A stretch of DNA of 62,991 bases, counting the filler, from Rhabdomonas costata (lineage: Eukaryota), in the NCBI GenBank assembly GCA_019059605.1. It is 55 parts of 55 records of this genome, joined end to end, with 100 filler letters (N's around TTAATTAATTAA, not from the genome) between each part and the next. Parts side by side here need not be neighbours in the genome. Positions count along the whole stretch, not along the records: positions 55,056 to 56,102 come from JAHMHO010031507.1; positions 56,203 to 57,249 come from JAHMHO010031508.1; 53 more parts are not named here. One strand, written 5' to 3'. The translations under genes and the position numbers were made by a program. Below the pieces are notes generated by a model, which saw only the letters and a program-made list of their open reading frames with translations, was not told the DNA's origin and searched no databases. This document shows positions 3,446 through 56,220 of the stretch, in pieces (position 1 is the stretch's first letter; each line of letters opens with the position of its first letter).

Positions 3446-3929
3446 AGGTGAGATGGGAAAATGAAGACGAGGCCGCAAGAGCTTGAATTCCGGCATCGCT
3501 GAGCGGGTTTTCACTCACATCCAAGGAGGTGAGGTTCGGGCAAAAGGGGGCTGCCACAAGTGTTTGCATTCCTGCACACATGATCTGGTTGCCACTTACA
3601 TCTAACGAGGTGAGGTTGGGGAAAAGGCAGGTAGCGGACCTGGAGAGCATTGCAGCCCCAAGCAAAAGCTCCACGAGCTTCTTCCCTTTCACTGAAATTC
3701 CCGAAGCAGAGCATCCCAGCCAAAGACTCCCGGGAAGACTCTCTGCCGCCTCGGGGTTCGCTCGGAGCTCATTTCCGGCCCCGAGCACAACCCTCCACTC
3801 AGGAACGAAGATCTCATCTACCAGCCCTCGAAACTGCGTGTACACCAGCCGCAAGGCAAGGCGAGCTGTGGCGTTTCCCCCCAGGAACCGAAAACTGCAC
3901 ACCAAGGTGTCCTCAGGAAGCCTGGACAT
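3446..3929 (-). CDS. F-box/leucine-rich repeat (RNI-like) protein, N-terminal part
   Basis: ATG 3929. F-box-like MSRLPEDTLVCSFRFL...LRLVYTQFRGLV, then LRRs FPNLTSLDVSGNQI / CPNLTSLDVSENPLSDAGIQALA; runs into the gap. Confidence 0.7.
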
Positions 3930-6627
3930 GCTGAGGGGGCGGGAGGTGCTTCGTGTGTGCTGTTCAATGAGAAATATGAGAGCACCTGTGGCGAGAATGA
4001 AAGGAACACAATCGAAATTCGTGGGTGGTCGGGAAGGGAAAAATGCATCCTCCACCTGAGCGGCAAACGGAAGCCATCTCACTGATTCACTGCCAGGCCC
4101 AAATCAATTCGGTCATTTGGGGCACGCCTCATGCCTACATGCGCACCAGGCTAAGAAATCGCAGGATGTTTCCCAGAGAGCTGTTGTGGTACTTCCGAAG
4201 AGCACGTCATTCCTGAAATTCGCCTCTTCCAAAGTGCTCTGAGCACCTTTCTGTTACCGTCCTTCGCCCTTGACGTCAACTTCAGGACCTGAAGCAATGA
4301 CCCCACATGTTCCCTCCAATCGTCTCCACAGTTTTCCTGCGTGGACAGCGCAGCTTTTGCTTGGACAGCTGTGATTCCAACTTTCTGAAAAATCCCGGCT
4401 CTGCCGAGAGACCTTGCAAGTAAATTCGGAACAATAGTGTGTCAGTGGTTTGGTGCGGAGGAGGAAGGAGGGGAGAGAGGAAGGGGAATATCANNNNNNN
4501 NNNNNNNNNNNNNNNNNNNNNNNNNNNNNNNNNNNNNTTAATTAATTAANNNNNNNNNNNNNNNNNNNNNNNNNNNNNNNNNNNNNNNNNNNNGGGGGTG
4601 TGTGCAGTGAAGACATGGTGCCCGTCGGCCTTCTGCGGCTGCCGGACGAGAAGCTCGTGGCATGCTACCAGCCCCTGGGCGAGCACGCGGCCCCTACCGG
4701 TCCTGACGAGTGGTGCGCAGAAGTTGCATTTTTTCCCTCTTCTCGCATGGGTCTCAGTGTGGTGGGGGAAGTTGTCGGAGGTTGCTGGCAGCCGGGTGCG
4801 CGCGGGACAGTTGTGCTTCTCTGAAGTTCGTGCGCAGCCAAAGCAGTAAGTTTCAGTTGGCAAACTTTCTTGCTTCTTTCTCTTTCAAGTTCTCGTTCCC
4901 CGTCTCTTTCTCTATTTTTCTTGGTGCAGCCGCGTTTTGATCTCATTGATTGGGAAACACGACCTCAATTTAACCTCTGCTGCCCTTCGCATCCCTGAAA
5001 TACAACAACAAAACAATCGAAACAATGCGCGCCAGAGCGTCGCATTGGGTGGGTCATGCCTACCTTCTTGATGTGGGGGCCGAGTCGACAGTCGTTATTC
5101 TGTGGAGTTTAATTTGACTTCCTGGGGGCATTGCGCTTGGACTTTTCACGGTTTCGGTTCACGTTGGCTTACTCCCCAACCTTTGTTTCCCACGGCTCAC
5201 CTCTACTCCCAGGTTCCAGATGTTCCAGGGGATCGTGGGTAGGTGGCTAAATAGTAGCTTTTCGAGTGGGTTGCTCACCAACCTGGGAGGCTTGGGGCTT
5301 CTTGAGTCTTCTCTCCACGCCACGCAACGAAAACACAGTTGCTTGTCATATGCCGTCCCCAGGCTTGAGGTCTCATGAGCTTAGGGGGTCGCACTGACTT
5401 AGTGAAGCATTGATCCCATGATTGCAATGCGCCCGCCACTCGCCCGTCGATCTGGTTGCTGCAGGATGTACACCTTGGGTCGCACCATGTGGAACCACCA
5501 GCCCGTCACCGACCTCTTCGAGGCCTACCTTGCCGAAGCTCGAAGCCGCCATGGTCCCTCAGCAACCACCACCTCCCCATCCGCTCCCACGGTGGCTCCA
5601 GGCGAGGGCTCTTCCGGGGGTGGCGAGCAACCCACCACCCCNNNNNNNNNNNNNNNNNNNNNNNNNNNNNNNNNNNNNNNNNNNNTTAATTAATTAANNN
5701 NNNNNNNNNNNNNNNNNNNNNNNNNNNNNNNNNNNNNNNNNGTTGTGTGGTGTACGATGACCAATGGGGATGGTAGTTACGTGGGACTTTCGGGTCAGCG
5801 AGTAGCCCAAGCGGTTGTTTCTTATGAGCATGCAGCTTCCTTGTATGTTCACATCTACACCGTGCGCGATGCTGCGTTTTTCGTGTGCTCTTTCTCTCTT
5901 GAACAGACGAGGGGGCAAGGAAGGCTTCCCTTGAAGGCAAAAGAAAATGATTGCGAGCGTGTGCATTCGTGTGCGTAGCGTCCTGTGGAGTGACTATGGA
6001 GTGATGGGGTGGATCACAGCTTTCATGGGACGCTATTTCGGTGGTGCCCAACTTTCTGCCGACTGGGGTGGCGGTACTTTTCCTGGGCGGGGTCGCGCTT
6101 CCCATGGCAGGGCTGCTTGTGTTGGGGCCCTCCCCTGCTTTGGTGGGGCACAAGCCCCGAGTCTCTGCACCACGACTCAGCCTTGCACTGGTGACCTCGC
6201 TGTTTTCCATCGCAGTGAGTGGCATCCTATACTGGTACTCCTCTCTGTCTCTCTCTCTGCCGTTTTCTTTGGGGCAGGTGTCTTGTTGGACGTTGGAGCT
6301 ATGCTTCTATTGTGGTCTTCACCACCTTTTTATTGTTTTTCCGGTGGCCAGATATCTCCACATCGGTGGCAAGAATGCTAGGGCACACCCTCCTGCTATT
6401 GCTCGTGCAGGGTGCTGCACTGAGCAGGTACTATCTACGCCTTCCGTGACCTGGGGGTGATCCCCTCCCCGGGTTGCAGGGCAGCCTGTGTGCACTTAAT
6501 GTTTTGTGACAACTGTACGCCATTCACGTCTTGAGTTTGGAATAGGCAGCGCCAGCCGTTTTCCTGCCAATTGTGAAGTGCTATGAAAATAGGAGATAAG
6601 AAGAAAGCCAGCTAGAAAATACCAAAA

Positions 6628-8037: not shown

Positions 8038-9075
8038 TGCGAAGTACGTTCCGATGGAGCTTCTGCGGCACCTGCTGAGCCAGCCCGTGCACACCGGCGC
8101 CTTCATGGATCACCGTGTAGTGACCGTGGCCTTCTGCGACCTGCAGAAGTTTCATGTTTACCACGAGACGCTGAGTCCCACGGAGCTGCTTCTGGTGCTT
8201 ACGCAGTTCTTTGACCTGATCTGTGAGACGGTGAGCAGCAACTCCGGGACTGTGGACAAGTACATTGGAGATTGTGTGATGGTATGGCTTTTTGTTGCCT
8301 TTGATTTTTTTTTTACCAATTTTGCGATACTTGATTTTAGTCCCTGGTAGGTCAAGCCTTTCATGCATGCATTTTTCGCCTGGGTCAGATGTTTGCTTGA
8401 TTGATCGATCGATTGACTTTTTACAGCGGGAGGCTTTTCTTTGATCCGTTTTTCATTCACTGTGCGATCCTATGGATGTTATTGTCTGGTTTTCTTCGCT
8501 GCCCGCATTTGAAAACAACTCCAGCTGTCGCGAGGACGCCCACCGCAGTAGGCTCGTTGTTTTGTTTCGCCTGTTTGGAACGCAGGCACTCTGGAACTGC
8601 CCGCAGCCCGTACCCGAGCACGAGGAGTGTGCCCTCATGGCAGTGCTGCAGATGCGGGCGGGACTGCCCCGGCTCCGAGAGATGGTGGGCCGGCTGGCCC
8701 CGACCTCCGTAGACTTCACCGCTGGGGTGCACACGGGGCGCGTGATGGCGGGCTCGATGGGCTCCTCGGTGCGGCTGGGGTACACGTGCATTGGGGCGGG
8801 CGTGAACATGGCGTCCCGCCTGCAGCCCCTGAACCTGGAGCTGGGCACCCGAATCCTGGCCAGTGCGGAGACGATGGCGCGGGTGCAGCGGGTGATCTCG
8901 CGGTACATCGGGACGGTGCGGGTGCTTGGGTCGTGCAACTCCATGGAGGTGTTCGAGCCTGTGGGTATTCTTTCGGATGCCTCGGGACATGGGAACGAGG
9001 GGCCATCCGATCTGGTCGTTCTGGCGTCTCAGCTTGAGCCAAGATGGGAGCAGGAGGAGACTGTGATGTTCCTGG
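8038..9075 (+). CDS. Class III adenylate cyclase catalytic domain; exons 8038-8281 and 8586-~9075
   Basis: Removing intron 8282-8585 (gtatgg...cgcag, phase 0) joins VTVAFCDL...VDKYIGDCVM to ALWNCP...GVHTGRVMAGSMGS..RLGYTCIGAGVNMASRLQ. Both metal-binding Asp, the ATP-specifying Lys and Thr, and the catalytic N/R are present. Confidence 0.93.
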
Positions 9076-9343
9076 GTAAGCCCNNNNNNNNNNNNNNNNN
9101 NNNNNNNNNNNNNNNNNNNNNNNNNNNTTAATTAATTAANNNNNNNNNNNNNNNNNNNNNNNNNNNNNNNNNNNNNNNNNNNNGTTGTTTGTTTATGCTC
9201 ACCTCCCACCCGAGAAAGCATAAAGAAACAGGCCAAGGGAGAGGGAAGAAGAAGTAAACGGGGAATAGGTGAACATTCCGCTTCCCAGGCTTATATAGCC
9301 CCCTTTGCAAGGCTGTGGGACGCTCGCGGTTACGTCCTCCGCT

Positions 9344-9551
9344 TCAGGCCAGCTTGGTTCCCTTGTACGTGTCGCGAAGGATGTTCTTCTGGACCTTCCC
9401 GGTGGCGGTGTGGGGCAGCTCCTTCACGATGAAGCAGACGTCGGGCACCCACAGCTTCGCCAGCTTGGGCCGGAGGTACTCGATCAGCTCCGTGCCGGTG
9501 GCCGAGGCGCCGGGCTTCAGCACTACCAGCAGAATGGGGCGCTCATCCCAC
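9344..9551 (-). CDS. Last exon of an acyl-CoA ligase (AMP-binding C-terminal domain), AlkK/DmdB-like
   Basis: (CT)n + cag acceptor, then WDERPILLVV...AKLWVPD..IVKELPHTATGKVQKNILR...KLA*. Contains the A10 motif LPxTxTGK and the WDERP/W.PD signature of medium-chain acyl-CoA ligases. Confidence 0.85.
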
Positions 9552-9553
9552 CT

Positions 9554-9602
9554 GAGAGAGAGAGAGAGAGTGTGTGTGTGTGTGTATGTGTGTGTGTCTG
9601 TG
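9554..9602 (+). repeat. (GA)n(GT)n compound microsatellite; acts as the polypyrimidine tract on the minus strand
   Basis: Directly visible next to the acceptor of the ligase exon. Confidence 0.9.
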
Positions 9603-10500
9603 TTAGACGCATAGGGCGCTGGCTGTTGCCTGACTGATTGTTGGTAAGCGCTGTATGTGACTGACGGGCGCACGCGCTGTTGGCCACGGTACCTTCAAAA
9701 CAAGCGGTGCCGTGGGGAACCGGCTCACCGCCGAGCCTTCCACATGCGGCAACCTCCCTTCTGCCCCAGAGGCCCGGGGCGTTTGTCGCCGCATCAGCTT
9801 TTTTTCACTGGTTACCAGGGCTGCTTAATTCTCTGAAGGTGCGTGCTCCTATTTTGTGGAGGGGGGAGCTATCTCGTTGAAACGCACCTATGAGCTTTTC
9901 ATTCGGATGTGTGTGAACAAGCAGAAACGGAGTGAGACAGTGATGTGTGTGTGTGAAGCCAAATTAGCATGATGCATGCTGACCATTACCTCTCTAATGA
10001 GGACCCATTCTGAGCACAGCCTATTGCCATCCCAACTCGATAGGGGGGGGGGGAGGTAAACGCTCACTTACCACTTCCAAACAGAATTCACCATCTAACA
10101 ACCACCACCTCTTTAGTGAGCAACCCGAGCTGACCTCAGTTGGCATAAACACAGCACTGTCAATACCAGGGCCTGGCAATGTCTGTCAAACCACACCCCA
10201 ATCCCGTAGTGAAGCCCCCCAAAACNNNNNNNNNNNNNNNNNNNNNNNNNNNNNNNNNNNNNNNNNNNNTTAATTAATTAANNNNNNNNNNNNNNNNNNN
10301 NNNNNNNNNNNNNNNNNNNNNNNNNGTCCTTCTGACAAAGGTCTTGGTTGAGAACGGAAAATTCTTGAAAATGTAAAACAGGATAATACAGCAGGTTTTA
10401 TGGCTGGAAAAGGTGTATCGCAAAAAAAAAAGCAGATTGCACTTTTTGCAGTTGTGGAGGACCTAGGGGGGGATCACCTGAATCTTCTGCCTCTCTTCAG

Positions 10501-25133: not shown

Positions 25134-25699
25134 NNNNNNNNNNNNNNNNNNNNNNNNNNNNNNNNNNNNNNNNNNNNTTAATTAATTAANNNNNNNNNNN
25201 NNNNNNNNNNNNNNNNNNNNNNNNNNNNNNNNNGTGGTTTGTTTGGAAGGCGTAAAGTTACCCGTAAATCCTCAAATACAATCCCTGTCCTGATAACCCT
25301 GGCGCTTCCATTTGAATTCGGGCTTGTACCGGTATTGCCGCTTTCCGCTGGAAGGTGAACGCGAAAATACTGTCCATCAGGGAAATGCCAACTTGCAAAA
25401 GTCCATACCCGTCGTACAAGGATCTACGACATCCTTGCCATCATTTTCTGCCTTTGGGTGAAGAGAGATTTTACTCTGCCGTGGTGACAAAGAAGCGTCC
25501 AATGAGGTTGAATTCCTGCCCCAAGTGCCCCAACGAATATACAGTCCCTCCCCTAAAGGTTAATACATTCCACCCGTTGGGGTTAGCAAGGATGTTCAGA
25601 ACCCGTGTTAATGCCAAGCTACAGCTTCTGCTGCCACTGCCGGGCTTTGATTCCCCCTGACTGCTGCTGGGAGGGCGAGAAGCACCCAGGTCATTCAAT

Positions 25700-26281
25700 T
25701 GCTCGGGCGGTGCAGACGCCTCCGAGTGCGGAGAAGTGAAGGTTTGCTGTTGGGTGGGGTCGTTGGTGAAGTCGTCCAGGTAGTTCGATCCATACACACG
25801 GAAGACGCTCATCGTGCAGTATGGCTGGCGCCCGTGAAAACTCACCAAAAGGACCTGCAGAAGAACACACGACGAAAGTTGGATGTGACTTCACAGCTGG
25901 CGTGAGAAAGCGGCATGTGAAGGAGCAATCAAACGTGCAAACGCTAAAGCTAAAGATCCCGAAAGCGAATTGCAAAAACAAAGCAAAATCTTGAACACTC
26001 AGCACCTTGAGATAACGGACTATGACTGGGGTTTTCAGGGCAAACTCTTGCAGATCCATCGTCGGTTCAACGTGAAAATTCCCCAGCATCTGCCACATGC
26101 ATCCCCGCTCGGGAACGCAAGGATAGGCTGTGGAGCCCAGCAGGGTCAGCTGCGCAACCCCACTGCTGTAAAACTCGTAGTTCGCCAAGGCAAAGGCGGC
26201 CATGCGAACTTCATCCGAGAGCTCCACCACAAACCACTTTCGCGCCGCAATGCAGGGAATGAGAAGATACCACAAAAAAAC
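25700..26281 (-). CDS. Mid-SUN (Sad1/UNC-like; SLP1/SUCO type) domain protein; exons 26281-26006 and from 25854 (3' limit uncertain)
   Basis: YLLIPC...KWFVVELSDEV...ANYEFYSSG...LLGS..YP...W..LGNF...VRYLK|VLLVSFHG.QPYCTMSVFRVYG, with phase-0 intron gtgctg...ctgcag. Confidence 0.85.
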
Positions 26282-38735: not shown

Positions 38736-39012
38736 CCGCCCCGTGCCCAATCTACGGGTGCACAACTAGTTTCTCATAGGCTGCTGACCATGTATTCTTT
38801 GCGGTTTAGATACGCTGCTGCCCTTCTCGGGCGGCTGTTGGGGAACGTTTGTCGGGTTTGTCGATGTTTTGATAGGATCAATTTGAGAGAAAAACCCNNN
38901 NNNNNNNNNNNNNNNNNNNNNNNNNNNNNNNNNNNNNNNNNTTAATTAATTAANNNNNNNNNNNNNNNNNNNNNNNNNNNNNNNNNNNNNNNNNNNNACA
39001 TTTATTGATAAC

Positions 39013-39456
39013 ATGTATGACTCTATGTACTATTGTACAGATTTCAGTATAACTGATTTTGACGATACATATTTAAAATACAAAATAACTGATTATATTT
39101 ATCGTGATTATACAAAAAACAAAAAATGTGATTATATATGTGATATGTCATATATAAAAAAAAATATGTGGTGTTGTAGAACATATGAAGATAGTATATA
39201 TATAACTGAAATACTAATATATAAAATTGATATCAATCAGTATTTAAAATACAAATATTATATGTATTCAATATTTCCGATGGATATTGTTAATCATATA
39301 TTATCATTTGCATATATACTGTTTTTAGACAGTGATGAAAATAATAATGATGACGAATTATTAGAAGAAGAAGAATATGAAGACTCATCAGATTTAAGAG
39401 AATTTGGAGAATCAGAAGATTTTGAAGAATCAGACTATTCAGAAGAATTGTATTAA
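39013..39456 (+). CDS. AT-rich intronless ORF with F-box-like motif and acidic tail, giant-virus-like
   Basis: 147 aa, Y/I/K/D-rich; FPMDIVNHILSF resembles the (L)P.DI...ILSF F-box-like motif common in NCLDV proteins. Contig composition is unlike the host contigs. Confidence 0.55.
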   Translation: MYDSMYYCTDFSITDFDDTYLKYKITDYIYRDYTKNKKCDYICDMSYIKKNMWCCRTYEDSIYITEILIYKIDINQYLKYKYYMYSIFPMDIVNHILSFAYILFLDSDENNNDDELLEEEEYEDSSDLREFGESEDFEESDYSEELY

Positions 39457-39527: not shown

Positions 39528-39586
39528 GTCAACATCTTGTTTATTTTAAATTGTTGTGCATATCAGCGCGCATATCATGGTTAAAA

Positions 39587-39930
39587 GAATATTAAAATCA
39601 TAATAAATATATTTTATCTTTCATTGAGATATTGTATAAACATATGTTATTAAAAATAAAATATGAAAAGAACCATAGTATAGCGCTACATAATCCGTTA
39701 TTGGATGTTACTACATCCAATAACGCACATATTTACGAGAATATTAAAATCATAATAAATATATTTTATCTTTCATTGAGATAATGTATAAATATATGTT
39801 ATTAAAAATAAAATATGAAAAGAACCATAGTATAGCGCTACATAATCCATTATTAGATGTTACAACATCCAATAACGTATATATTTACAAGAATATTAAA
39901 ATAATAATAAATATATTTTATCTTTTCATT
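39587..39930. repeat. 152-bp tandem repeat, ~2.3 copies
   Basis: GAATATTAAAAT(C/A)ATAATAAATATATTTTATC starts at 39587, 39739 and 39891, with several substitutions between copies. Confidence 0.92.
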
Positions 39931-44625: not shown

Positions 44626-45263
44626 CCCCCACACCCNNNNNNNNNNNNNNNNNNNNNNNNNNNNNNNNNNNNNNNNNNNNTTAATTAATTAANNNNNNNN
44701 NNNNNNNNNNNNNNNNNNNNNNNNNNNNNNNNNNNNCCCCCCCAGGCATGAGAGTTCGGAATTGGGGCAGGCAGGCAGGCCTTGAGCGAATTCTGGACTC
44801 TCAAGAACGCACGTACGCAATGAGACCCATGAGACCCAGAGGGCAGCTTACGCACGAGGACCGCTATCGAGGCGATGCCCTCACACACTATTACACCGCC
44901 TTTGTTAAGTCTCATCTGAGGCGACCTCACGGTAGACCTAACATACTCGCATTTTAACCTCACTGAAGTGCCCTGAGAATGACTTATCCAAGAGCTTATG
45001 AGGTGAGCATCGTCCACTGCATCCCACGCTCCTGCAACTCCTTCCACCCCGTGCGAGAGCAGTTTGACACACGTTCAGAGGTTATCTGGAAAGGATTTTG
45101 CTTTCGTTGGCAGAACGGCATAGTGATTGGCAGGCGTTCGAAGTTGTGCACCGATTGTAGCTCAGCCGATGGGTTTTGGGGTTGGCATGACAGAGCCGGT
45201 TGGTCCTTCAGGATTTTACGGGGTCAGTGGATCGCCCGTCAATCCCCCCTCCCCTTGCTACAG

Positions 45264-45536
45264 GTGGCCCGCAACGCACTAATGGGCAGCCTTTCCACGG
45301 TCGTCGCGGACGTTCTGGGAAACCCCGCCCGGGTCGTAAAGACGGCGATGCAGACCCACCCCACGCCGGGGGCGAGGTATACGGAAGTGGTGGCGCAGAT
45401 CCTCGCTAAAGATGGCCTGCCAGGTCTCTTTCTGCGAGGGCTGAAGACCCGTTTGCTAGTGAACGTGCTGCAGCGCACGCTTTTCTCCATCCTGTGGAGA
45501 ATGCTTTCGGAGGCCTTTGCCGGAGACCCGGGGTAG
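45264..45536 (+). CDS. Mitochondrial carrier family protein, last exon
   Basis: tacag acceptor; GNPARVVKTAMQT...YTEVVAQILAKDGLPGLFLRGLKTRLL: carrier P..V.K...Q and (D/E)G..GL..G motifs; stop at 45536. Confidence 0.8.
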   Translation: MARNALMGSLSTVVADVLGNPARVVKTAMQTHPTPGARYTEVVAQILAKDGLPGLFLRGLKTRLLVNVLQRTLFSILWRMLSEAFAGDPG

Positions 45537-53810: not shown

Positions 53811-55378
53811 NNNNNNNNNNNNNNNNNNNNNNNNNNNNNNNNNNNNNNNNNNNNTTAATTAATTAANNNNNNNNNNNNNNNNNNNNNNNNNNNNNNNNNN
53901 NNNNNNNNNNGTTGGTGGTGAGCATATGCGTGCCGTGGACCTTAATCACTGCAGACAATATGAGTCAAGTGGAAAGGTCCACTCTGTTGCAGGGCATGAT
54001 GAAAACTCGCTGTGTCATCTCAGAGAGCTCGACAAAAATGACAAACCCTTCCTTTTGGGTGTCTGCTGAAATGCCACCTGACGCCATCTGACGCCAACCG
54101 AATCTTTCAGGCAGGCCATTGTGTCAGAGCCATATCTGGGATTGTTTTTCCTCGTTCACCTTTCGCTGTTGGCCCAAGTGGCTGGAAATGTCGTACGTCC
54201 CTCGTTTAGAAACTGTTTCGGTGAGTGAGACCCCTGCAGTGACTGGAATTTGAGTAGCTGTTTTGCAGCAGCGCAATCTGACGCCATCTGACGCCACCTA
54301 AATTTATTTGTTCGGCAGACACCGTTTTCCAATTGCTCGATTTGCGGAATATGGTACAGGGCTGCATATACGAGTAGACGCGAGGTAAAACCAGAAACAC
54401 AGCATTGCCCGCCGACCAATGAGGGCAAAACCAGGGCACATTGCCGCAAGATAACATCAGCAAAACGAGACACTGTTTGAACATTAACCGATGCTTTCAG
54501 CGAAGCAGGTGCACGAGTCGTCCACCACATAGAAATCAATATGCCCTTTGGACCCCCTCCACCTCTTCGGTGCATACCCTGGTACTGCACGGCTTCGAAA
54601 AACAAGGACACCGCCTTGAGAGCCACCAGGGCAGCTGCAAACGAGCGGGTGAAGAGGAAATCAAGGCAAGCACTTTGGCACTGGCCCCAGGCAGTATCGC
54701 ACTCGCAGATGCAGAGTATGCCATTCAATGGTATAATCTTTTCAAGAAGTGACAGAAAAAATTATCCACAAGTCAGAGGAGGGCAAAAGGGCACCACAAG
54801 CTAATGGGGCAAATTGAACAAACCGGCACAAGTGCTTGAGATTTGTTCGCTTCGCCATTTTTCCATTTCAACCAGTAATGACATTTAAGCCCGACCACAA
54901 AAGCTAAATGGGACGTTTTTTTTGTGGACGGTGAACCGAACGCACACCCCAACAANNNNNNNNNNNNNNNNNNNNNNNNNNNNNNNNNNNNNNNNNNNNT
55001 TAATTAATTAANNNNNNNNNNNNNNNNNNNNNNNNNNNNNNNNNNNNNNNNNNNNGGTGTTGGGTGGTAAAATATGTCTGGTGCTGGCTTAGCACAGTTG
55101 AAATTGTTCTGTAGTGAACTTGCAAAGGTCAGCTGTGAAAGACCACCAAGGACTAGCCTCACCGGAAGAATTTATGCCATAAACTATCACGAAGGGGCGG
55201 TCTCCTAATATCGTCTAAGAGAGTCTTTTTTGGTGGTCAGGGCTTCCCGGTCCGCTGAGAAGCAGTATCGTCCGCTTTTTAGAAAACTCGTCGGCTTCAG
55301 GTACGGAAATGCACCAGACAGGTGGGCTATGGGTTTGCGTGTTTTGTTCGTTTCCCTTTTTCGCGTTCCTTTCACACG

Positions 55379-56075
55379 ATGCTTCGCGGGGCACTGCGCG
55401 GGGTTGTGCTTGGGGTGCCGCGAGTGTTTGCCGCGCAGTGGGCTGGGTCCCGGGGCTACTCCACCACCACCACGAAGACCCCGGTGCCGATGCGGTTTGT
55501 GACGGCCACCAGCCTGTTCGATGGCCACGACGCCAGCATCAACATCATGCGCCGGCTGCTTCAGGAGTGCGGGGCGGAGGTGGTGCATCTGGCCCACAAC
55601 CGCTCCGTCGACGAGGTCATCCACGCTGCCCTGCAGGTATGGCTGAAGATCCTCCCTCCCCTCTTCCTCTTCCCACTGCTGCTAAACTCCGACGTGCCGG
55701 CGCCATTCGCCCGGTCCCAAATCGGACTGACCCCCCTGATGCGCCATTTCTTTTTACGGATAGCCAAGCCGTTTTCTTGATTTTTAATGTCGGTTGTCCC
55801 CTTCCGAAGATTAAAAAAGACTGAGCACAATACCGCCTTGGGCGAGTTTTTCTTCTTCCCCAGTGGATCTTGCTTTGGTAATGCGGTGCACACCACGGGG
55901 AACAGAAGAACCAGAGGAGATTCTGCTTGATATGAAGGGAACTGTCTGCAAAGGCTGTCGTCCTTCTTCACGTCGGCTGCAATCGAGTCCCTCGTGTCTT
56001 CGCCTGTTCTCAGGAAGATGTGCAGGGGGTGGCGATCAGCAGCTACCAGGGTGGGCACATTGAGTACTTCCAGTA
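55379..56075 (+). CDS. icmF: IcmF-type fused isobutyryl-CoA mutase, N-terminal B12-binding domain, with N-terminal presequence; exons 55379-55636 and 56014-~56072
   Basis: Spliced [68 protein letters not shown] closely matches the IcmF N-terminus. Intron 55637-56013 is gtatgg...tctcag, phase 0. Confidence 0.88.
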
Positions 56076-56220
56076 CTTGGACCCATTTTTGCCCTATTTA
56101 TGNNNNNNNNNNNNNNNNNNNNNNNNNNNNNNNNNNNNNNNNNNNNTTAATTAATTAANNNNNNNNNNNNNNNNNNNNNNNNNNNNNNNNNNNNNNNNNN
56201 NNTGTTGGGTGTGTTGGGTT

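Follow-up and report, generated by a model that had tools for sequence, protein, structure and literature searches.

First exons of a nuclear IcmF-family gene with a presequence-like leader in the euglenid Rhabdomonas costata

The closest described relatives of the gene reported here are the bacterial IcmFs, fused B12-dependent isobutyryl-CoA mutases. These proteins begin with a B12 domain and continue through a G-domain and a linker to the substrate barrel at the C-terminus; the G-domain binds and hydrolyzes GTP, and this is described as controlling both how AdoCbl is loaded from the adenosyltransferase and how damaged cofactor is removed (PMC10356863, PMC11672702). In the IcmA/IcmB and HcmAB systems (4R3U for the small subunit), a B12 domain likewise begins the protein. 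Eukaryotic methylmalonyl-CoA mutase (MMUT) is also an AdoCbl-dependent acyl-CoA mutase that needs both a G-protein and an adenosyltransferase (PMC10356863). In MMUT, the B12 domain is C-terminal and the chaperone, MMAA, is a separate protein. Isobutyryl-CoA mutase was listed in 2021 among prokaryote-restricted enzymes (PMC8085122), and in the portions of a further paper that were at hand it is treated only in prokaryotes (PMC2667541).

Here, we describe a contig that, on well-supported sequence grounds, carries the first two exons of a nuclear IcmF-family gene of the euglenid Rhabdomonas costata. The contig was found in a window, the whole stretch of DNA that was analyzed, of 62,991 bases, which consists of 55 short contigs (1035-1053 nt) separated by N/TTAATTAATTAA spacers. 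The IcmF locus occupies the contig at 55056-56102 (1047 nt, GC 0.549), and when five bacterial IcmFs were compared with the entire window by tblastn, this was the only contig that gave a match. Taking all observations together, we favor the explanation, with a probability of roughly 0.78, that an expressed nuclear gene of R. costata begins on this contig and encodes a bacterial-derived, mitochondrion-targeted fused IcmF. The features of the locus are collected in Table 1, together with the ordinary host-gene exons that served as comparators for codon usage.

Table 1. Features of the IcmF locus and isolated comparator exons, in positions of the window
Feature	Position	Strand	Evidence
Upstream non-coding region or 5′ UTR	55056..55378	+	Pyrimidine-rich tract right before the ATG
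Exon 1, leader: 37 codons, basic, acid-free, with R-G-Y-S site; putative mitochondrial presequence	55379..55489	+	Translation; GC3 0.81
Exon 1, start of IcmF-type B12-binding domain from M38, with DGHDAS cobalamin-ligand motif region	55490..55636	+	NF045497 positions 2-51; GC3 0.90
Intron 1: conventional GT..AG spliceosomal intron, 377 nt, phase 0	55637..56013	+	GTATGG...CTCAG; missing from P0157
Exon 2: 22 codons, B12 domain continued	56014..56079	+	NF045497 positions 52-74; P0157 residues 87-108; GC3 0.82
Start of intron 2, no GT/GC 5′ end; candidate nonconventional euglenid intron; contig ends	56080..56102	+	Divergence from P0157
Adenylate/guanylate cyclase exon (isolated)	8445-9083	+	Domain match
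AMP-binding_C exon (isolated)	9347-9694	-	Domain match
Sad1/UNC exon (isolated)	25694-26281	-	Domain match
LRR exon (isolated)	3447-4103	-	Domain match

Exon 1 is open for 86 codons from the ATG at 55379 to its end at 55636. There is an in-frame stop upstream of 55283 and no in-frame ATG 5′ of 55379. The upstream region has a GC content of 0.483 with unbiased values at the three codon positions (0.50/0.53/0.47), and its ORFs gave no family matches; in the leader, GC rises to 0.712. Together, the two exons account for a basic leader of 37 residues and for 71 residues from the start of the IcmF B12 domain. The initial annotation had proposed here an ATG, an acid-free leader, a B12 signature with HNRSV and a 377-nt intron, and each of these elements is present in the sequence as described.

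The intron between the exons has a length that is not divisible by 3, and reading through it leads to a stop at 55778-55780. To score the junction, we used a profile built from the first 160 residues of 42 full-length bacterial IcmFs and considered every GT..AG pair, 50 in total, for which the reading frame stays open up to the contig end; the pair 55637/56013 ranked at the top with 159.5 bits versus 150.1 bits for the runner-up. A short-protein search then matched the spliced product, with 100% identity and 100% coverage, to the 117-residue protein RCo019539 (EukProt EP00906_Rhabdomonas_costata_P013619), referred to below as P0157. Residues 1-86 of P0157 correspond to exon 1, with the leader included from M1, and residues 87-108 to exon 2, with AALQ joined to EDVQ precisely at 55636|56014. 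RCo identifiers are given to R. costata proteins, in a set predicted by TransDecoder from a Trinity transcriptome (PMC8219788). Because a protein from this transcriptome is identical to both exons and joins them exactly, the gene can be taken as eukaryotic, transcribed and spliced, and not as bacterial contamination. The protist host and the spliced GT-AG intron that had been proposed from the DNA alone are thereby borne out, and so is the argument against contamination, since the intron is absent from a transcript-derived protein in which the leader is present. As judged from these identities, the gene is nuclear, transcribed and spliced, and it belongs to R. costata or to an organism that does not differ from it in this region.

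With its GT..AG ends, its precise removal and the restored frame in P0157, intron 1 is of the conventional spliceosomal kind. We also considered it as a structured or self-splicing element and rejected this option, as no Rfam family matched and its fold z-score of -0.63 is nothing special. The situation differs at the 3′ side of exon 2. After ...EYFQYL, P0157 continues with VDLLRKHGR, which aligns with the IcmF 4xc6, while the genome from 56080 reads GACCCATTTTTGCC... instead. The tblastn similarity to the five bacterial IcmFs ends at 56079, and beyond this position (56080-56102) GC falls to 0.39. Exon 2 ends at 56079 or 56080, and the bases that follow are GA or AC, i.e., neither GT nor GC, in the 23 nt that are visible. 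Since P0157 remains IcmF-like past exon 2 whereas the genome diverges without a GT, a second intron would begin at about 56080, and it is probably of the nonconventional type. The absence of GT/GC fits the nonconventional introns known in euglenids, which lack GT/AG borders and have ends that pair into a stem; a few candidates exist in R. costata (PMC8219788). Alternatively, the divergence at 56080-56102 is possibly an assembly error at the contig end. The feature had initially been drawn from 55379 to 56102; this span stands for exons 1 and 2 but not for its end, where homology stops at 56079 and the last 23 nt are not contained in P0157.

Several comparisons identify the encoded domain as the N-terminal B12-binding Rossmann domain of IcmF. 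The NCBIfam IcmF equivalog model NF045497 covers exon 1 with its positions 2-51 (E 1e-23) and exon 2 with its positions 52-74 (E 1.8e-9), leaving neither gap nor overlap. These are far better matches than chance would be expected to give, and because they adjoin in the model, the coding parts are contiguous across the intron. P0157 as a whole scores 149.7 bits against NF045497 (positions 2-81), while the next family, the generic mutase B12 domain, reaches 37.3 bits and methylmalonyl-CoA mutase (MCM) 23.3 bits. The score of 149.7 bits derives from 81 of 1076 model positions and is far under the equivalog cut-off of 1500 bits, which applies to the whole protein, because the remaining model positions are missing from the known sequence. 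Among proteins of known structure, exon 1 matches residues 46-95 of IcmF (4xc6/8ssl) with an E-value of 4e-18 and the HcmB small subunit with only 8e-5; for P0157 the match extends over residues 46-125 of IcmF with an E-value of 6e-38 and ∼62 of 80 residues identical, as counted in the printed alignment, versus 1.5e-9 for HcmB. A 15-residue stretch covering the cobalamin-ligand motif region (Asp-x-His...) is identical to 4xc6; we take the His of the DGHDAS region to be the lower axial ligand. Thus, the domain is of the IcmF sequence type and starts at the mature N-terminus, in agreement with the identification made initially. Identity to bacterial IcmFs amounts to 77-82% in the mature part. 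The ESM Atlas returned only weak matches (0.77 or below) in bacterial fragment clusters, and an exact 30-mer from exon 1 had 0 matches in JGI metagenome contigs.

The leader starts with MLRGALRG, extends for 38 residues ahead of the conserved RFVTA motif and contains no Asp or Glu, while its first 36 residues include 4 Arg and 1 Lys. In 116 database N-termini of bacterial IcmFs, the extension before RFVTA has a median length of 21 residues (range 8-53), and of the 17 long extensions (≥25 aa) none is acid-free. A HMMER search of 1.84 billion representative proteins gave 1316 matches at E ≤ 0.001; among the best 150 of these, only P0157 and a second protein, P0158, align from residue 1, and the rest begin at query positions 20-38. 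The leader is, accordingly, a basic, acid-free extension that has no bacterial counterpart in these comparisons, and the earlier view of it as presequence-like and atypical for bacterial IcmFs holds. The GC3 values of the leader and the two exons (Table 1) resemble the 0.68-0.94 of host exons elsewhere in the window. Mitochondrial presequences often show an R-3 processing pattern, and the R-G-Y-S site fits it. The hydrophobic moment of residues 1-18 is modest at 0.45, a value for which there is no calibrated threshold. Because a plastid is reported to be absent from R. costata (PMC8219788), the mitochondrion is the likely destination of the leader. By its composition, then, the leader fits a mitochondrial presequence.

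P0158 is a protein of 123 aa from ENA, encoded on a 684-bp contig outside the window. Its first nine residues are the same as in P0157, the RGY and TPVPM motifs are kept, and its leader is also basic and acid-free. The mature parts are identical at 49 of 50 positions up to ...AALQ, where both exons end; beyond it, P0158 has a different read-through. This read-through begins with Ala (GCN), and the P0158 intron may begin with GC. P0158, which shares this exon boundary, is either a paralogue or comes from a close relative. While the core of the leader and the intron have diverged between the two loci, the enzyme part is nearly invariant, which speaks for selection at the level of the protein; the pattern indicates purifying selection on the mature part across both loci.

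The presence of a bacterial-type enzyme domain in a eukaryotic data set raises the question of whether the gene is a bacterial contaminant, or a bacterial gene with an inserted element. The high identity of the mature part to bacterial IcmFs is in line with this scenario, as is the report that 12% of robustly placed R. costata proteins branch with prokaryotes, some of which may be contamination (PMC8219788). However, the 377-nt insert has GT..AG ends, shifts the frame and is precisely missing from the transcript-derived protein; it lacks both an Rfam group I/II intron match and a fold signal; a second intron probably follows exon 2; the leader and the upstream DNA have no bacterial counterpart among the matches listed; and GC3 is like that of the host exons in the window. 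We therefore regard contamination as having only the slightest chance of being correct. A different scenario accepts a full IcmF of R. costata but not its mitochondrial location: translation would start at M38 (55490), or the extension would be a non-targeting tail, and the enzyme would be cytosolic. The IcmF model begins exactly at M38, bacterial IcmFs too have N-terminal extensions (8-53 aa), and the pyrimidine tract before 55379 is followed by AGs within the leader (55424, 55438 and 55477) that could be trans-splice acceptors. Against this, the transcript-derived ORF carries the leader from M1, and GC, at 0.48 before the ATG, climbs to 0.71 after it, where GC3 in this frame is 0.81. Moreover, P0158 preserves the start and both motifs of the leader, neither leader contains Asp or Glu, unlike any of the long bacterial extensions, and with the plastid reported absent (PMC8219788) the mitochondrion is the obvious target. 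On balance, a cytosolic enzyme appears unlikely.

The remaining scenario is that the gene is real and expressed but yields a B12-domain-only protein or is a decayed remnant, i.e., it would encode a split small subunit with separate partners or be a transcribed pseudogene. What gives this scenario some weight is that no sequence is seen past model position 81, that P0157 has only 117 aa, and that among the best 120 of 7813 matches there is no R. costata protein of ≥152 aa, and hence no long transcript with this N-terminus. P0157, however, breaks off partway through the Rossmann fold, at a point where IcmFs continue, as would be expected of a partial Trinity transcript, and the conservation of 49 of 50 mature residues at two loci with diverged leaders and introns suggests purifying selection. 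Also, the domain is part of a fused protein wherever its context is visible: within the same best 120 matches, all 42 that are ≥1000 aa carry the B12, MeaB-type and mutase Pfam domains. Short close matches had prompted us to consider a stand-alone B12 protein, but this candidate was rejected, as the 8 short matches on long contigs that were read proved to be truncated or frame-shifted fused IcmFs; 4 of them reach the P-loop, the other 4 enter the linker and have frame-error-like tails, and none is a compact stand-alone protein. A B12-only protein or remnant is therefore, in our estimate, quite improbable. Conversely, we consider it probable that the gene encodes a complete IcmF, of which positions 2-81 of 1076 are known from sequence.

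Compared to C. metallidurans IcmF (4XC6, 8SSL) and NF045497, the R. costata domain corresponds residue for residue over 80 positions, DGHDAS included, and, like fused IcmFs, it begins to match the model at position 2. The C. metallidurans enzyme also has the G-domain and a TIM barrel, whereas the R. costata gene is known from the B12-domain part only. In contrast to bacterial IcmF genes, the R. costata gene lies in a eukaryotic nucleus and probably contains at least two introns, and its product has an acid-free leader of 37-38 residues, which was not seen in the 116 bacterial N-termini. With MMUT it would share the expected mitochondrial location, but the domain order, the predicted built-in rather than separate chaperone, the expected substrate and the scores (23.3 versus 149.7 bits) set the two apart. 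IcmA/IcmB and HcmAB are far more distant, as the E-values for HcmB and IcmF illustrate, and the closest relatives of the R. costata sequence are all fused. Within R. costata, the HemN-type CPOX and ferrochelatase offer a parallel, as they are reported to be bacterial-like, to carry a mitochondrial targeting signal and to derive from horizontal transfer (PMC8219788), although they belong to other enzyme families.

We suggest that the gene arose by lateral transfer from a bacterium and subsequently would have gained introns and a presequence. We infer this origin from the 77-82% identity to bacterial IcmFs, the ∼80 aligned residues being too few for a tree. Following import into the mitochondrial matrix, the leader would be cut near R-G-Y|S. 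The remainder of the gene is predicted to encode a MeaI/MeaB-type G-domain and a TIM-barrel substrate domain, and the enzyme would interconvert isobutyryl-CoA and n-butyryl-CoA, and possibly isovaleryl-CoA and pivalyl-CoA. By hydrolyzing GTP, its own G-domain would control when an adenosyltransferase hands over AdoCbl and when damaged cofactor is removed. For the R. costata mitochondrion, MCM, epimerase, PCC and the reverse-beta-oxidation enzymes of wax-ester fermentation have been reported (PMC8219788); as it has MCM, it must receive AdoCbl. Degradation of branched-chain amino acids has been reported for the mitoproteome of Euglena gracilis (PMC7403612). In the facultatively anaerobic R. costata mitochondrion, the enzyme would connect the breakdown of valine with a butyryl-CoA pool that serves beta-oxidation as well as fatty-acid synthesis by reverse beta-oxidation (wax esters). 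Both the substrate and the pathway role of the R. costata enzyme are purely what we infer. More tentatively still, and with somewhat less than an even chance in our view, euglenid mitochondria may contain a complete and active IcmF that interconverts valine-derived isobutyryl-CoA and n-butyryl-CoA. Its gene would then be a bacterial acquisition of sufficient age to have picked up introns of the conventional and the nonconventional kind, to have been given a presequence and to have been duplicated.

The other contigs of the window contain exons of the eukaryotic type, including mitochondrial carrier (Mito_carr), Sad1/UNC, adenylate/guanylate cyclase, AMP-binding_C and LRR exons, and scans of the 62,991 bases for Rfam families and tRNAs gave 0 matches. 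The mitochondrial-carrier exon (45261-45533, + strand) has R. costata RCo028167 as its top match with only 69% identity, followed by matches of 51% and 49%; by comparison, the IcmF exons match their R. costata protein at 100% identity. Presumably, the carrier exon is from a paralogue whose own transcript is missing or beyond the searched length range. The contig at 38998-40045 departs from all others with a GC content of 0.207, compared to ∼0.5 in the rest of the window. It contains a 152-aa ORF (38998-39453) that ends in an acidic Glu/Asp-rich repeat tail, and a tandem repeat at 39581-39930 (unit 152 nt, 2.3 copies, 93% matches) with a perfect hairpin inside each unit; this contig is without a Pfam match and may be organellar, viral or contaminant. 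On the - strand of the contig at 28678-29724, the full 1047 nt form a single open frame of 349 aa (P0153) with a GC3 of 0.877. No Pfam family matches P0153, and the frame is probably a long exon of an uncharacterized euglenid or mobile-element protein.

The novelty that had been claimed for a eukaryotic IcmF is upheld by the literature: a search of the full text of papers found none that describes an IcmF or isobutyryl-CoA mutase that is eukaryotic or mitochondrial. The main texts of the mitochondrial-proteome papers do not mention IcmF (PMC7403612, PMC8219788), and this includes any mention of an IcmF of R. costata in the R. costata paper itself (PMC8219788). The N-terminal fragment of the protein is already public in EukProt, where it has no functional name. 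That R. costata has laterally acquired bacterial enzymes with mitochondrial signals is already known (PMC8219788).

Altogether, the R. costata gene is a well-supported new member of the IcmF family in an unexpected domain of life, as judged from its first two exons. To our knowledge, surveys count three types of B12 enzyme in eukaryotes, i.e., methionine synthase, methylmalonyl-CoA mutase and class II ribonucleotide reductase. If our reading is true, IcmF would be a fourth type, the first eukaryotic acyl-CoA mutase besides methylmalonyl-CoA mutase and the first B12 enzyme in eukaryotes to carry its own G-protein chaperone. The requirement of euglenids for B12 is well known, and the enzyme would provide an extra reason for it. 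It would also suggest that, in an anaerobic, wax-ester-forming mitochondrion, valine catabolism has an unrecognized connection to the butyryl-CoA pool. By this route, carbon from branched-chain amino acids could enter the synthesis of straight-chain fatty acids and wax esters by reverse beta-oxidation, bypassing propionyl-CoA; in the opposite direction, butyryl-CoA could give rise to iso-branched primers. Finally, the gene would be an example of the domestication of a laterally acquired gene, which appears to have gained two kinds of introns, a targeting peptide and a duplicate.
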